Of a DNA stretch of 64,000 bases, positions 6,101-55,790 are shown in pieces. The position numbers and the translations under genes were made by a program. The stretch's first letter is position 1. Each line of letters begins with the position of its first letter. The notes under the pieces were generated by a model. It made no database searches and had not been told where the DNA came from. It saw only the letters and a program-made list of their open reading frames with translations. The DNA comes from Isurus oxyrinchus (Eukaryota). The stretch is from positions 128,588,001 to 128,652,000 of the forward strand of contig JANJGN010000001.1 of the NCBI GenBank assembly GCA_026770705.1, in the 5' to 3' direction.

Positions 6101-7127
6101 AGTGACTCCCTCACCTTTCCTTACCAAGACCTACCAATTTAGTTCCAAGCAGTGACTCCTCCAACTGTGTAGCTGAAAATTGACCCAAAACTCCTCCAAG
6201 TGAGGCAGAAAGATGCAGATGGGAGCTATACTGAGTCTAATGCCTGATGCCTGGTTCCAAGGGGGAACACAATGTTGGTTTCTCAAAGAGGTTGTAGTAT
6301 TTACAGGGTACAAAATGGCCCTACAAAAATGCCAAGAGAACTGATATTGCTCTTTTAAAGCAAACAGTTTCATTGAACTAATTTGACCAAACTCAGTGAA
6401 TAACCTTACTGTTCAAACACCCATATGTAAAACACACCCTTTCGAAGCATCCTGAGAAAGCTTCACCTTCAAAATCAGCTAATCATGAAGTAGTAACGTG
6501 CTTGTTACTGATTTTCTTGATAACAGCGCTCACAGATTCCAGTGTCCCTCGTGTTAAGCCCTACTTTTGGTCTCTTTTTATAGGAAGATTTGTTTAATCT
6601 TATAAACCATCAGGTCCCATCAGAAGCCACAGCAGTGAAACATTACTGAACAAGCAGATCAAAGTGATACACCTCCTTCATTCCCACATGCGTGTGGGTT
6701 TCTTTTTCCCACCTCCTGTTGTCGACAATGGACTCGGAACTCTGCCGGAATCCAAACTCCATCCCCCAGGAAAAATACCCTAATTTCTTGGACATTCTAA
6801 AGGAAATTCTTTTTCTTATCAGAAGGTTTGGTAGCAGGTACCACGGCAACCGATGTACTAACTCCGTTTTCAGCATAAAGTAACATAAAGGCACCATTGA
6901 TATCTTTCTGTGTTGAAATACTGTAAAAACGCTACATATGGCACATTAGTATTGTGAATGCTAACATTTTTTTTTACATATATATATTTAAATCTATAAA
7001 AACTTGTAGACTTTCTACTAGCTGCAAGGTTCTTCTGCTAAAATAAAATAAAATGTTTAATTTAAAGTAAAGTATCCGGAGTACTTCATTATATAAAATA
7101 AAGTTTTACTGGTGCATCTATGTGTTT
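3130..7127 (-). other. NRG1: Probable long NRG1 3'UTR (~4 kb)
   Basis: AU-rich and free of recognisable transposons, unlike both flanks. Ends near ATTAAA (3155-3160) followed by a GU/U-rich element. Confidence 0.6.
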
Positions 7128-7767
7128 TTAGACAGCAATTGGGTCCTGATTAGCAATTACATTGGACAGCCTGACTTGCAACTCTTCCTGTGTCGAGTAC
7201 CTATTGGTGGAGTTAGTCCTGTTTTCAGCCAATCGGTATGCAGGGGCTGATTCTACACTCGTTGCCATGGGGTTCTGTATGCTCAGAAAGGGTGTCTCTT
7301 CCCCTATTCGTTCATCTTCAGTTTCACTGTCAGAGCTACTGCTCTCCGAGCTTGGATTACCCTCGCTCTCCATTCTGTGTGAAATGTGGCCATTAGCCTT
7401 TGTTCTTTTCCCTCTCCTGTTGCTGGTCCCTTTCTTGGGGGACTCGAGCGTTGGCTCATACTCTTGCGTGGTCTCATATTCATCGTCCTCGACCACCCTT
7501 AGCGGGCTGGCCGGGATGCTGCCACTGTCCTTGGCGGAGTTGCGGTACTGCTTGTAAGGGTCTTGCCTCTTCTCCCGCTGTCGAGGTGGGGTCACCAGAA
7601 GCAGAGGCCTCTCCTCCTCGATTAAAGGGCTTATGGCCACTGATGGCATGGATATAGTCAGGCTAGAGACTGGCGGCGACACCTCTGAATCAGGCGACTT
7701 TGGGGACATTGGGGTTCTGAAGTCCACTGGCGACATTCTGGCTGGAGTGGTCATGGCAGAGACGAAC
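7128..7767 (-). CDS. NRG1: NRG1 a-tail terminal coding exon: (R)FVSAMTTPARMSPVDF...YETTQEYEP...RLSNVIANQDPIAV*
   Basis: ORF-track 208-aa ORF extended to acceptor ttacag. The C-terminus ANQDPIAV is diagnostic of the NRG1 a-tail. Confidence 0.98.
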
Positions 7768-8913: not shown

Positions 8914-9013
8914 TCATCCTTTTGAATTTGGGTTCACTGGTGCATCCATGTTTCCTTGGACAGCAATTGAATCCTGATTAGCAACAACATTGGTCAACTT
9001 AGGAGAGGTTTTT
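8914..9013 (-). CDS. NRG1: Candidate alternative terminal (b-position) exon: (R)KTSPKLTNVVANQDSIAVQGNMDAPVNPNSKG*
   Basis: Acceptor ctgtctcatctgttcttacag is in the correct phase (2) for the 9672 donor. 32 codons follow, then TGA TAA. Paralogous to the a-tail C-terminus. Confidence 0.6.
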
Positions 9014-9671: not shown

Positions 9672-9875
9672 CTTTCACTATGCGGTGAATCTCGGAGAGA
9701 GTCCGGAGTGTCTCTTGAGTTCCTCACACAGATAAGCATCTCTCGCCGACCTGCCACACCATTGAGTCGACCTCGGTGATTGATTGGACTGGTGTGCCTG
9801 CTGGTTTCTATTGATGACGTTACAAGCACAGAAGGGCTATCTGAGATGACACTTTCTGTTTGGCCTGTACTCCAA
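9672..9875 (-). CDS. NRG1: NRG1 cytoplasmic exon 3: WSTGQTESVISDSPSVLVTSSIETSRHTSPINHRGRLNG...DSLRDSPHSE(R)
   Basis: 204 nt, acceptor gaccacag, donor gtaggg. Ends in the conserved RDSPHSER. Confidence 0.96.
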
Positions 9876-14654: not shown

Positions 14655-14785
14655 CTGTGGCTGGGTGTGTGAGTAACTGTCGTAGAGTGATGGGTTGTCG
14701 ATGTGTAGTGACTTGTTGAGAACGAGGTTTCTGTTTCCCGCTCAATGACATGCTCAGTGGATCCAGGGTTTTTCATTATATATTG
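14655..14785 (-). CDS. NRG1: NRG1 cytoplasmic exon 2: QYIMKNPGSTEHVIERETETSFSTSHYTSTTHHSTTVTHTPSH(S)
   Basis: 131 nt, acceptor tttcttttcag, donor gtatct, in frame with both neighbours. Confidence 0.96.
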
Positions 14786-19958: not shown

Positions 19959-20085
19959 ATTTGCCAATTGAACATTGTCTGCCGGAGGGTTTGTGTGGTG
20001 GGGTCCATTTACAAGGTTCACCATGTTGTTGCGCTCGGAGCGGAGACTCTGTCTAAGCCGGTCATGCAGCTTTTTTCGCTGTTTT
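19959..20085 (-). CDS. NRG1: NRG1 cytoplasmic exon 1: KQRKKLHDRLRQSLRSERNNMVNLVNGPHHTNPPADNVQLAN
   Basis: 127 nt, acceptor tacag, donor gtaagt. Contains the basic NLS-like KQRKKLHDRLRQSLRSERNNM typical of NRG1. Confidence 0.97.
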
Positions 20086-22541: not shown

Positions 22542-22644
22542 TTTGTTTTGCAGTAAGCCACAACACACATGATGCCAACCACCAGGAGGGCGATACAGAT
22601 CCCTGTTATCGTCAGCACTCGCTTCTGGTACAGCTCCTCAGCTT
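22542..22644 (-). CDS. NRG1: NRG1 transmembrane exon: AEELYQKRVLTITGICIALLVVGIMCVVAYCKT(K)
   Basis: 103 nt, acceptor ttctctcttcag, donor gtaatc. Hydrophobic helix is NRG1-type (ICIALLVVGIMC). Confidence 0.98.
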
Positions 22645-26547: not shown

Positions 26548-26571
26548 CCATAAATTCAATTCCAAGATGCT
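26548..26571 (-). CDS. NRG1: NRG1 linker-1 microexon: (K)HLGIEFM(E)
   Basis: 24 nt, cattggcag|AGCATCTTGGAATTGAATTTATGG|gtatgg. Matches the NRG1 beta1 linker KHLGIEFME. Confidence 0.96.
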
Positions 26572-36014: not shown

Positions 36015-36073
36015 TGTAGAAACTGGCCATTACGTAGTTTTGGCAGCGGTCACCAGTAAATTCATTTGGACAC
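36015..36073 (-). CDS. NRG1: NRG1 EGF beta exon: CPNEFTGDRCQNYVMASFY
   Basis: Peptide matches mammalian NRG1-beta as recalled. 59 nt, long CT-rich tract then ttgtcag acceptor, donor gtacgt. Confidence 0.97.
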
Positions 36074-36903: not shown

Positions 36904-36971
36904 GTTCAGGTGTAAAGACTCTCATGGGTACAGTCTCTGTACATCTTTCTCCGGTGAATCCGGGATCACAC
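36904..36971 (-). CDS. NRG1: NRG1 EGF alpha exon: CDPGFTGERCTETVPMRVFTPE
   Basis: Acceptor ttctaccctccag, donor gtatgt, 68 nt. Resembles mammalian NRG1-alpha CQPGFTGARCTENVPMKV. Confidence 0.93.
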
Positions 36972-39584
36972 CTGGAGGGTAGAAATCGGACATAAACAAA
37001 CAGAACAAAAGGAACTCAAACGGTCTTAGGCATGACGCTTAAAGGAAACTAAGGTGTTGGAAATCACGGGTGAATTCACGTCGAGGAGGGCTGCTTGTTG
37101 CAACTGGGCAGCTTGGCTGCCTGAATTTAATGGCCAACTATTATTCCTTTTGTGTGGTTGCCTCTCCTTTGAGGATAATAATTTTTTGCAGGATTACTTA
37201 TAGGTTTACAAGCGACAGCGCAAGCAAATTGCCACTTGGGTTTCACATATGCTCATGTCTCTAGTGTGGGACTTCAGGGTAATAATACCAGTCATTAGGA
37301 ACCATTCAATATCCAACCCTTTTCAAGAAAGCTTTTAGACGTAAATGACACACTGAATAAAGGTGTGTGTAATGTACCATTACCTGGTTTGTTGGTTTTA
37401 AATTTCCTTGGTAATATAACAGTTACTGGTCCAAACACGAATTAAATTTTTTAGAATCTTTTTGCGAAAAGATTGCAGCATAGTTTGTAAAGTTAAAGAA
37501 AGGGGTATTCCATTGTGTGCCTGCAGTTTTACACATTATTTACAGGCACATTGAGCCTGTAGCTCCAATTCTAACTGTTGTCACAACCACTATGGCCAAT
37601 TTATCAGTTTGGTCTGACAAGCCATTAAATCAAAAAGCATCAGCCACCAATCTGCGTAGCAAAATGCCCAATAAAACAAAGATAGCAACCCACTTAGTGT
37701 GAATCAGACACTTTGAGGTAGGAAGTTTTAGCCTCTATGATCTGCCAACCCAAATACCTTTTTTCATATATATATTGAAGGAAACACAGCAGTATGGAAT
37801 TTTATTAATTAAGAGATTATTGGAATGCTCGTTTTGTCAGCCTCTGACATTACTTGAGCTGCTTAAATGGCTAATGAGTCACAGGGTGCAAATTTTCAGC
37901 TCGAGTCCAGAAGCAATTGAGCTCCTAACAGCATACATAATTACTTTCTGTGATCAGCAGACAGAGCAGGCTTGATGTCCTGTCTGGCCTTTTCTCTTTC
38001 CATCTTTTATGTCCCACATTTTTATTACTGAATATCTTTTTGAAAGGACTCAGTTAGATCATTGAGATTGTTTTCGTGCCTTTATCTTTGGAATAAAGCT
38101 CCTTGCGAGACCAAAACCTACTGCGGTCGAGTCTAGAAAAGTGCACTTCTGCTCCAAGCAGAATCTCAATCCAAGCATAACATTTCTTGGCAACGCATTT
38201 GTATATTTATCAGGATCCAACTGCATTACAAGATGTGTCAATGTGACAGAAACACCCCATTCCACTACACCGGTGATAAGATTATGTCACTGTGCGTTTT
38301 TTTTTAATCTGAGGAACCGAACATTTTTCTGTTTCCCCTTCTGAAAGCAGTGTTGGGTTCACAACTTTCTGATTCAGGTAGAGGGCAGTTTCAACACACT
38401 GGAATGGCCTCTCCCTACACTACCCCAACAAATGTGGCTGGATCTCTTGCATTTGCCTTTTTCTTTCAAATCAATGGCTGTGGCCTTAATGAGGGAGCTG
38501 ATCCAACGCTCATTCATACTTAAGACCCTCAGACCTTAAGCGTGGCAAATGACCAAACTATTATTAACTCCCCTGTCACCACCAAAAAGCACTCTATTTA
38601 ACGGATAACTAATGAAACATCATCCTTAGGCTGGAGGATCTTACAGGGCACTGTGTTTTGGGCATGCTCATGAATATTTAAACCCTCTCTATCTAGTCAC
38701 AACTCAGCTTCCTGAAATCAGGGTAGGGAAGGGCTGTTTAGATTGCCAGTGTTATTACATTTTTACCCATTATTATTGTGATCATGGCCAGTTGCTATGC
38801 TTTGTCAATATAACACATTAATTATGATTTGGTAAAGCCCAAGCTGATTGATGGAGGTCCCTGTGGATATTGCTTCATCAGAGCTTTAAGCCAAACAGTA
38901 CATCCGTATCCGATTTTATTTCAGATGCTTGTACCATGGAGGTTAACTGCTGTTGTACAAATGTGTTAAGTAGGGTAACTGGACATGCATTGTTTGAGAA
39001 AACTATTGAATGGTGCCCCTTCAAAATCTGGTTATAGTTCCAATTTCAATTATTCTTGAAATATATTTACTATACATTTCAAATATTCCACTCGACTGAA
39101 AAGGAATCGAATAGCAATAGTAAATGTGAAGGCCCTTTGTCAAATAATCATTGATCTAGTAAGCAGCCCATCCCAAAACACATTCCCTCTCATTCACTGC
39201 TCAGTTACACACGAGTTGTACCATTTACTTTTAAATAGCCTCATTGTTTTTTCATAGTTCTATTGGAATTTCCAATTTATTTCAGGTAATAACGCACTGA
39301 CTTCAATTAGTCTTGGAGACATCGCCAATGCGATGAGAATTTGAGGGTGAGCATTGTAGGGAAGCTCTGAAATAGAAAGCAGGACCTAATGTGGGGAAGG
39401 AGCTTTCAGAAGTCTTCTGACTGCAGAGCATGTGACAGGAAGGTTATTTTATTCACACTATTTCTTTATCCTCCTCCTTGTACAGACAAGTGTGCGCATC
39501 TGTGTCTGTGTCCAATTATGTGTGTGCATGTCTCAGTGTGTGTGCATGTTTGTTTTTATGTTTGCATGTCAGTCTGTCAGGCAT

Positions 39585-39740
39585 GTCAGAGTGTGCGTGC
39601 ATGCGTGTCAGAGTGTGCGTGCATGTGTGTCAGAGTGTGCGCGCATGCGTGTCAGAGTGCGCACGCATGCGTGTCAGAGTGTGCGCGCATGCTTGTCAGA
39701 GTGTGCGCGCATGCGTGTCAGAGTGTGCGCGTGTGTGTGT
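39585..39740. repeat. 22-bp minisatellite (gtcagagtgtgcgcgcatgcgt) x ~7
   Basis: Units start at 39585, 39607, 39629, 39651, 39673, 39695 and 39717. Confidence 0.95.
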
Positions 39741-40094
39741 CTGTGTATGTTGGAGAGTTAGGGTGTGTGGGGGTTTTGCGGTGTGCGTGTGTGCCAGTGC
39801 AGGGTGGACCATATGCTTATTACATTAAAAGTAAATAGCAAGGCTGATGAAAATTTATAGTCTGCAGTACCACTCTTTTCATAACAGTCAGTAACAATAT
39901 GTGCAATCCAATTCCATATTATTCTTTAAGGCTGGAGGTCTTTAATACTGCACAGAAATGCAACTTACAACCTGCTTTTGAATCTAAAAAGGCTGAAAAG
40001 CAGAGTAGTTTTTAAGTTAACATGAATGGTTAGAATTAACCTACATCATATGGGCTTCACTGTTGAGCAAATTAGCAGAAATTTGTTTTGCTCC

Positions 40095-43644: not shown

Positions 43645-43765
43645 TGACAGGAGAGTTTATTAATACCATTGATAACGAAACACTGTCCTCCATTCACACA
43701 ATAGTGCCGATCGCTCTCGTTACATGGCCTTGCGTGGCCTGACCAAGGCGTAGGTGAAGTGGTAG
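43645..43765 (-). CDS. NRG1: Neuregulin-1 EGF-common exon (Cys1-Cys4 of the EGF-like domain): xTTSPTPWSGHARPCNESDRHYCVNGGQCFVINGINKLSC(Q)
   Basis: Hand translation of the minus strand shows the CVNGG neuregulin EGF motif. Acceptor tcttcccgtctgcag, donor gtaagt, 121 nt, phase 1 in and phase 2 out, in frame with the alpha and beta exons. Not in the ORF track. Confidence 0.95.
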
Positions 43766-54290: not shown

Positions 54291-54944
54291 ACTATCAGGT
54301 GCTTATAGTAAACTGGACCAAAAGGCTGAAAACAACAATATTCACTGTGATCATTGTAATTCAAATCTTTGCTATTCTTTATTTTACTTTATATTACTTT
54401 CACTCATATCCACTCCATGGAATTTTCTTCTTCCCTGCTTTGTGCATTATTGCCTGGCTGAAAGTGGGTTGCGGGGTGGAGGGGAGCAACTGCTCTCTGT
54501 CTAGTCCCCTGCCAACCACCAACAATTGCACAAAGCTTCAGATTTGACTTTCCCCATCACCCAGGAACTGCCTCTGTCTATCACATCCTCAGGCAATGGT
54601 TCAATGGATAAACTCAACTCCTTTCACTCTGGGTTTGGGCAGAGAGAAGTTATCAGAGCTCTCCATAGTGTTGGCCTCTTCCCAGGGCACTGCAGCTGAG
54701 ACAATACATCAACAGCCTACTTTCACCTGCTCATGGCTGGCAACTAGTGAATACAAATGATGGTCTGCAGCCTATACCAACAATCTCGCCCCTTTGTAGG
54801 GAGATGCCCCTCCTTCCCACAGCAGCACAGCCAAGATAAAGAACTCAGAATGTAGATGATGAGACTTGCAACCATGGCAACATATCACTGTTCTGATATA
54901 GGTTGGAAATGTTGTCAACTGTGATGGGGATAGCCTTGAACTTC

Positions 54945-55790
54945 AAAAGGACACAGGCATGTTGGTGGATTGGGCAGACAAGTGGCAGATGAAGTTCAAT
55001 GCAGAAAGTGTAAGGTGATTCATTTTGGCAGGAAAGATATGGCAAGACAGTATAAAATAAAGGGAGAATCTTTAAAGGGGGTGCAGGAACAAAGAGACCT
55101 CGGTGTGTATGTACTTAGGTCATTGAAGATGGCAGGGCATGTTGAAAGAGCAGTTAATAAAGCATACAGTATCTTAGACTTTATTAATAGGGGCATTGCG
55201 TACAAGAGTAAGGAGGTCATATTAAACTTGTATAATACACTAGTGAGGCCTCATCTGGAGTACTGCGTTCAGTTCTGGGCACCATACTTGAGGAAGGATG
55301 TGAAGGCATTGGAGAGAATACAGAGGAGATTGCCAAGAATGGGATGAAGTGCTGTAACTATGAGGATAGTTTGGAGAGGTTGGGACTGTTTTCCTCGGAG
55401 AAAAGAGGGCTGAGAGGAGACTTTGTAGAGATATTCAAGATCCTGAGGGGTATGGACAGGGTAAATAATGAGAAACTATTTCCACTCAAGGGAACATCAA
55501 GGACTAAAGGGTACAGATTCAAAATAATTGGCAAAAGCAGTAAGTGGGAAGAATGGAAATCAAATTTCACCCAAAGGGTAGTTGGAGTCTAGAACAAACT
55601 TCCTGAAAAGGTGGTGGAGGCAGGTTCAATCAAGGTATTCAAAAGGGAATTAGATTACTACCTGGAAAGAGAGAATGTGCAGGGTTACTGGGATAAGGCA
55701 GCTGAGTGGGACTAGGTGGAATGCTCTTTCAAAGAGCCAGTGCAGACTCGAAGGGCCAAATGGCCTCGTTCTGCACTGTTCGGACATTGT
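54945..55790 (+). mobile_element. CR1 LINE 3' fragment (RT C-terminus and 3'UTR), frameshifted
   Basis: Encodes WADKWQMKFNA / CKVIHFG / RDLGV / LVRPHLEYCVQFWAPYLRKD, which are CR1 ORF2 motifs. Confidence 0.9.

Follow-up and report, generated by a model that had tools for sequence, protein, structure and literature searches.

An EGF-common exon of shark NRG1 that probably keeps the state of the NRG1/NRG2 ancestor

The EGF-common exon of NRG1 in the shark Isurus oxyrinchus very probably keeps the state of the ancestor of NRG1 and NRG2, and bony-vertebrate NRG1 appears to have changed fast and to have gained a three-residue loop insertion after the split from sharks. The exon lies within the 64,000-nucleotide stretch of DNA that was analyzed (the window). 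The original prediction offered two explanations for its likeness to NRG2, retention of an ancestral ligand loop and gene conversion. The first is supported for the loop, in that site patterns and tree tests, along with branch lengths and comparison to a hagfish outgroup, point to a retained ancestral loop and to a longer loop that arose in bony vertebrates, but not for the S-H-L motif, which did not arise as a unit.

In the literature searched, which was largely without subscription journals, figures, and supplements, no description of this exon in cartilaginous fish was found. Chou and Ozaki reportedly made an in-silico study of vertebrate NRG1 evolution in about 2010, which could bear on novelty. 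The available portions of PMC2834686, PMC4914847, PMC7468296, PMC8672417, PMC4494069, PMC11360300, and PMC1618406 do not treat the shark common exon. Within those portions, the alternative exons of NRG1 and NRG2 are dated from jawed vertebrates (PMC4494069), and NRG1 to NRG3 are placed in related ancestral chromosome regions (PMC2834686).

Structure of the exon and its gene

The exon occupies positions 43645..43765 on the minus strand (read 43765->43645) and spans 121 nt between a ctgcag acceptor and a gtaagt donor. It encodes the end of a Thr/Ser/Pro stalk, the conserved His, and Cys1 to Cys4 with the spacing C-x7-C-x5-C-x10-C, in which the Cys3-Cys4 loop has 10 residues; an N-E-S sequon directly follows Cys1. 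The exon, its peptide, the loop length, and the sequon are as originally read, with the strand being minus, and the human NRG1 and NRG2 peptides given in the original prediction agree with records P0418 and P0273. The human NRG1 common exon is presumably 130 nt long, consistent with the three-residue difference from the 121 nt found here. Pfam assigned no family to the common exon alone, because the exon is only part of an EGF domain. A search of PDB sequences gave human NRG1 as the best matches (E ~2e-4) and no NRG2 entry among 12 matches, a result that is uninformative on origin, and an atlas look-up gave a top score of 0.86 (NRG4 fragments), which is under the 0.9 mark and serves as a lead only.

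In the gene model, the common exon joins in frame to an alpha exon (36904..36971, minus strand, read 36971-36904) and to a beta exon (36015..36073, minus strand, read 36073-36015), and both joins are open. The alpha exon (68 nt) encodes Cys5-Cys6 of the alpha type, has ag/gt flanks, and is in frame with the common and transmembrane (TM) exons; the beta exon (59 nt) encodes Cys5-Cys6 of the beta type. The six-cysteine EGF module is thus built, as in NRG1, from a common exon and alternative alpha and beta exons. A juxtamembrane linker exon of the beta-1 type (26548..26571, minus strand, 24 nt) was placed by a peptide match to P0004, with its ends hand-counted from the flanks. The TM exon (22542..22644, 103 nt) is followed by cytoplasmic exons 1 (19959..20085, 127 nt), 2 (14655..14785, 131 nt), and 3 (9672..9875, 204 nt) and by the last coding exon, or a-tail, which runs to the stop (7128..7767) and carries the neuregulin intracellular region (Pfam PF02158; E 3.9e-71), so that a TM segment precedes PF02158 as in NRG1. 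All of these are minus-strand exons. Shark proteins used as tblastn queries located the alpha, beta, and TM exons and the four cytoplasmic ones.

A bony-type second exon in the window was considered and rejected, as eight NRG1, NRG2, or hagfish queries found no other EGF-common exon in the 64 kb. Neither Ig nor cysteine-rich (type III) N-terminal exons were found in the window; near-identical shark records show both forms.

Several other features were seen along the window. In the last intron, positions 8914-9013 (minus strand) repeat part of the a-tail exon's end, with 64 nt at 82.8% identity to 7105-7168. An AG acceptor puts this copy in frame with cytoplasmic exon 3, after which it adds 32 more codons, passing the position of the original stop. 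The copy might serve as an alternative short tail, retaining a motif like that of the C terminus; its ending is absent from the shark proteins collected. The intron between the common and alpha exons contains a GT/CA-rich simple-repeat tract with spurious open frames (39371-39838), and two overlapping frames at 54940-55592 (plus strand) resemble what we take to be the 3' end of a degenerate reverse transcriptase of a CR1/L2-type LINE.

Assignment of the gene to NRG1

By its sequence, the gene in the window is assigned to NRG1. The TM and cytoplasmic part has a mean identity of 73% to bony NRG1, 53% to shark NRG2, and 48% to bony NRG2, and in a tree of the TM segment and tail, with cyclostomes as the chosen outgroup rooting, the window falls with bony NRG1 (support of 90.5/91). 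Tests on the tail put the NRG1 grouping best (AU P of 0.887), with two alternative rootings not rejected. For the common exon itself, mean identity is highest with shark NRG2 (66%), followed by bony NRG2 (61%) and hagfish (60%), and falls to 41% with bony NRG1. The Ig domain of the shark NRG1 orthologues has a similar skew in raw identity, being 51-52% identical to NRG2 and 46% identical to bony NRG1, yet the orthology tree is clear (AU P of 0.967, versus 0.0005 for the conversion tree). That the NRG2-ward skew recurs in the neighboring domain, whose tree is clear, speaks for rapid change in bony NRG1.

The window's beta exon is identical to that of the bony NRG1 records compared at 19 of 19 residues. 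However, the shark NRG2 beta exon is itself identical to the NRG1 beta exon at 18/19 residues, so this exon does not assign the gene; the cytoplasmic exons do. The claim that every downstream exon is clearly NRG1 consequently holds for the cytoplasmic exons and fails for the beta exon. EGF-domain similarity misassigns shark neuregulins.

Retention of the ancestral exon versus gene conversion

Gene conversion should leave the exon nearer to shark NRG2 than shark NRG2 is to bony NRG2. Instead, 13 of 40 sites differ between the window exon and shark NRG2, against 5 of 40 between shark NRG2 and lungfish or sturgeon NRG2, which disfavors conversion. A recent conversion was rejected. What could still be proposed is that NRG2 overwrote all or part of the NRG1 common exon early in the cartilaginous-fish lineage and that the exon then diverged, and we regard this as quite unlikely. 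By identity, the closest match of the window exon is indeed shark NRG2, and the end of the loop is identical in shark NRG1 and several shark NRG2 sequences, including a Lys where bony NRG2 and hagfish have Gln; of 14 bony NRG1 sequences, however, 13 likewise carry Lys or Arg at this position. The near identity of the shark NRG2 beta exon to that of NRG1 is compatible with an exchange between the genes, but the Ig domain has the same identity skew with a clear NRG1 tree.

Tree tests on the common exon used 24 rows and 43 columns, a subset of a 42-row alignment, of which only 40 to 43 columns are usable. The orthology tree was best or tied best (AU P of 0.63 and 0.59), and the conversion tree was rejected by the AU test on the whole exon (P of 0.028 and 0.025) and after removal of gapped columns (P of 0.031). 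On a 33-column core, the AU test gave a P of 0.066, and the SH test gave P values of 0.057 and 0.054 for the conversion tree; neither of these rejects conversion. Trees with shark NRG1 as sister to all NRG2 (P of 0.17-0.19) or as basal (P of 0.56-0.61) were not rejected either. In the free exon tree, shark NRG1 is basal and does not fall with bony NRG1, and the NRG2 exons group without shark NRG1 (support of 86.3/69). The window exon does not nest in the NRG2 clade as sister to shark NRG2, with the core columns being borderline. The label "NRG2-type exon" under which it was first described is therefore misleading, and the conversion that had been offered as one of two explanations is disfavored.

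Site patterns point the same way. There are 12 columns at which the window matches shark NRG2 against the majority of bony NRG1, and the hagfish record P0177 agrees with them at 9; the remaining 3 are not common to hagfish, as conversion would allow. At 4 columns, the window matches hagfish and not shark NRG2, and at 3 (one of them also among the 4), it matches bony NRG1 against NRG2. Out of 40 sites, hagfish differs from the window at 16, from shark NRG2 at 18, and from four bony NRG1 sequences at 21-27, so that the window and shark NRG2 are about equally close to it. Polarity in these comparisons comes from this single hagfish record, in which the loop is 12 rather than 10 residues long. The 10-residue loop and the N-x-S/T sequon, both traits of NRG2, are present in the window exon; the sequon is shared with hagfish and so is not diagnostic.

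A separate observation concerns the NRG2 genes of sharks and rays. In P0187, P0188, and P0206, the beta exon is identical to that of NRG1 at 18/19 residues and the linker is nearly so, while tetrapod NRG2 has 10-12/19. The likeness may reflect either strong conservation or conversion in the other direction.

Loop length and the His motif

The ancestral loop probably had 10 residues, as far as the present alignments indicate. All 142 NRG2 records with an EGF exon have a 10-residue Cys3-Cys4 loop; among 125 bony NRG1 records, from bichir to human, the loop has 13 residues in 101, 15 in 24, and 10 in none. The 15-residue loops include those of many frogs (P0384-P0403, P0451, and similar records), with a second insertion at the same site. 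In caecilian and clawed-frog NRG1, the N-G-I of the shark still stands directly ahead of the extra residues, so the insertion lies after this motif.

The opposite polarity, with a long ancestral loop (12-13 residues) shortened independently in shark NRG1 and in NRG2, is very improbable, and the other residues of the shark exon may be ancestral even then. In its favor, the sole jawless-fish common exon retrieved has a 12-residue loop. However, the two extra residues of hagfish align before a conserved Gly and the three of bony NRG1 after it, so that they look like separate insertions, and two deletions would be needed to yield the same loop. Most EGFR ligands, moreover, have 10 residues between Cys3 and Cys4.

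At the N-terminal end, the residue after the conserved His is Ala in 9/9 shark rows and Leu, Val, or Phe in 13/14 bony rows; the window exon has neither a large hydrophobic residue there nor a loop of at least 13 residues. The N-x-S sequon occurs in 88/88 chondrichthyan and 2/125 bony NRG1 records. The first explanation in the original prediction made S-H-L a bony-vertebrate innovation, which, for the motif as a unit, the bony NRG1 records contradict: 56 of the 125 have Gly-His, 68 have Ser-His, and 1 has Asp-His. Gly-His persists in many amphibians as well as in bichir and sturgeon; among the groups sampled, S-H-L is fixed in amniotes alone, and some frogs have it too. Ser-His is thus later than the bony stem and patchy.

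The standard exon of shark and ray NRG1

Of the 28 candidates from the exon search, 24 passed at E values of 1e-22 to 2e-19, well past what chance would give, and 23 of these are named NRG1 of sharks and rays. Among 96 chondrichthyan NRG1 records, 88 contain the EGF exon and 8 do not; all 88 combine the 10-residue loop with the sequon, although these records are isoforms from 22 named species (hand count) and not independent samples. A distinct NRG2 gene, with a common exon of its own, is present in sharks and rays as well. Four NRG1 records (P0024, P0506, P0507, and P0508), each 594 aa long, come from contigs of 2.4-2.8 kb, have the same exon type as the window, and continue through to the NRG1 C terminus. 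Since the same span covers ~36 kb in the window, these contigs indicate spliced RNA in a relative.

An assembly chimera, which had been raised as a case against the original prediction, or a minor alternative exon with the true bony-type exon elsewhere, is scarcely credible: the gene's 5' part falls outside the window and the evidence comes from records of relatives rather than RNA of I. oxyrinchus, but this exon type in 88/88 EGF-bearing chondrichthyan records, the short full-length contigs, and the lack of another common exon in the window rule out the chimera and speak against the alternative exon.

No holocephalan, lamprey, coelacanth, or lungfish NRG1 was among the best 120 of 3187 in the profile search. 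Callorhinchus is represented only by P0138, a fragment of NRG2 that lacks the EGF exon, and lamprey P0070 is without a common exon. In P0003, a Heterodontus RefSeq isoform, the common exon is joined directly to cytoplasmic exon 1, without the alpha or beta and TM exons, which may be a prediction artifact.

Timing and direction of the change

The change is likely to have occurred on the stem of bony-vertebrate NRG1, after the shark split. With the gene tree fixed, the stem lengths in the common exon are 0.579 substitutions/site for bony NRG1, 0.115 for shark NRG1, and 0.027 and 0.021 for the NRG2 stems, and the bony NRG1 stem is 0.055 in the tail. The bony stem exceeds the shark stem in 288 of 300 bootstraps. 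None of 200 random 43-column draws from the tail reaches 0.579, and the maximum bony stem among 22 tail windows used as a control is 0.23. Relative-rate tests have P < 0.05 for five of nine bony NRG1 sequences, and all nine lean the same way. However, in paddlefish (P0370 and P0371), one NRG1 copy is shark-like in having Ala after the His and an N-x-S sequon, and the other copy is not, so some of the changes may post-date the bony stem or have reverted.

Divergence of the two ligands looks reciprocal. NRG1-beta agrees with NRG2-beta at 42 of 52 positions in catshark versus 24 of 55 in human; in these alignments, bony NRG1 would have rebuilt its common exon and bony NRG2 drifted in its beta exon, with the shark ligands staying near twins. 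From retention of the ancestral exon in sharks come a direction and a rough date for the parting of the NRG1 ligand domain from that of NRG2; the human-type form of the NRG1 ligand, a signal to nerves and heart, is likely younger than the shark split. Such uneven divergence after duplication is an ordinary process.

Implications for receptor binding

The EGF module of NRG1, made from the common exon and an alpha or beta exon, is shed or presented at the membrane and binds ErbB3 or ErbB4 by wedging between their domains I and III. In the shark, the common exon with either the alpha or the beta exon would likewise encode the three-disulfide EGF module of a membrane pro-NRG1, and this protein, as elsewhere among vertebrates, would act on ErbB4 and ErbB3 (with ErbB2) either after shedding or through contact between cells. 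The available part of PMC10948148 describes HER4 salt bridges with R207, E215, D219, and R220 of NRG1-beta. Mapped onto these contacts, R207 becomes Lys in the shark, and E215, D219, and R220 are identical. Given the conserved His and the equivalents of these four residues, as far as that source describes them, shark NRG1 is likely to be an active ligand.

The change in ErbB3/ErbB4 binding that the original prediction considered is plausible. According to the accessible part of PMC7566517, changing His2 or Leu3 to Ala weakens binding to both receptors, more so for HER3 and only mildly in the soluble form, and HER4-biased variants combine changes at His2, Lys24, and Pro29; PMC10374477, in the part available, adds Lys35 to such positions, citing the same alanine scan. 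At the human NRG1-beta positions, His2 is kept in the shark, but position 3 is Ala, position 24 is Asn, position 35 is Gln, and position 29 has no counterpart. Read against those partial accounts, shark NRG1 may possibly lean mildly toward ErbB4 and is perhaps less tuned to ErbB3 than human NRG1-beta. In any case, sharks supply a conserved ligand variant from nature, which departs from human NRG1-beta at Leu3, Lys24, Pro29, and Lys35; mutagenesis has linked these positions to HER3 binding or HER3/HER4 bias, and the variant suits a simple binding assay on the evolution of receptor preference.

The burst on the bony stem would have struck the end of the ligand that biases HER3 versus HER4 in human mutagenesis. 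A bolder reading, for which we see some room but which is doubtful, is that strong ErbB3 tuning of NRG1 was a bony-vertebrate invention and that sharks myelinate their nerves and trabeculate their hearts by means of an NRG1 that is ancestral, leans toward ErbB4, and is almost a twin of their NRG2. Paralogue specificity in sharks would then come from expression and N termini, not from the ligand domain. If so, the burst would have comprised replacement of the Ala after the His by a large hydrophobic residue, disappearance of the glycan site, and the three-residue insertion.

Comparison with known neuregulins

The gene is already annotated as RefSeq pro-neuregulin-1 in elasmobranchs, where its NRG2-like exon goes unremarked. 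The exon peptides of Carcharodon carcharias XP_041051521.1 and Scyliorhinus torazame XP_072351512.1 are identical to that of the window, and the best whole match is the Carcharodon NRG1 record (97.65% over 468 aa, with a gene model in which one small exon is mis-set).

Bony NRG1, known from structures of the human EGF domain (PDB 1HAE, 3U7U, 7MN5, and 8U4I), has the same common and alpha/beta exons, linker, TM segment, and PF02158 tail as the window gene; the beta exon is identical, the conserved His and the C-V-N-G-G core are shared, and the tail and Ig trees group shark NRG1 with it. It differs in having a loop of 13-15 residues rather than 10 and mostly a large hydrophobic residue rather than Ala after the His, and the mean identity of the common exon is only 41%.

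NRG2 of sharks and bony vertebrates resembles the window exon in the 10-residue loop, the S-G-H-A-R start, the N-x-S/T sequon, and an exon identity of 61-66%. However, it is a separate gene in sharks, has Tyr-Tyr or Tyr-Phe after Cys3 where the window has Phe-Val, and has a tail identity of 48-53%.

The neuregulin-1/2-like record of the hagfish Myxine glutinosa (P0177) combines a TM segment of the NRG1 type and a single alpha-like 3' EGF part with a type II-like N terminus and an Ig domain. It differs from the window gene in its 12-residue loop and in falling outside jawed-vertebrate NRG1 and NRG2 in the tail tree, in which the cyclostome rooting was set by choice. Nevertheless, it shares with the window exon the Gly-His-x-Arg-x-Cys-Asn-x-Ser start, the Gly-x-x-x-Leu-Ser-Cys-Gln end of the loop, and an exon identity of 60%.
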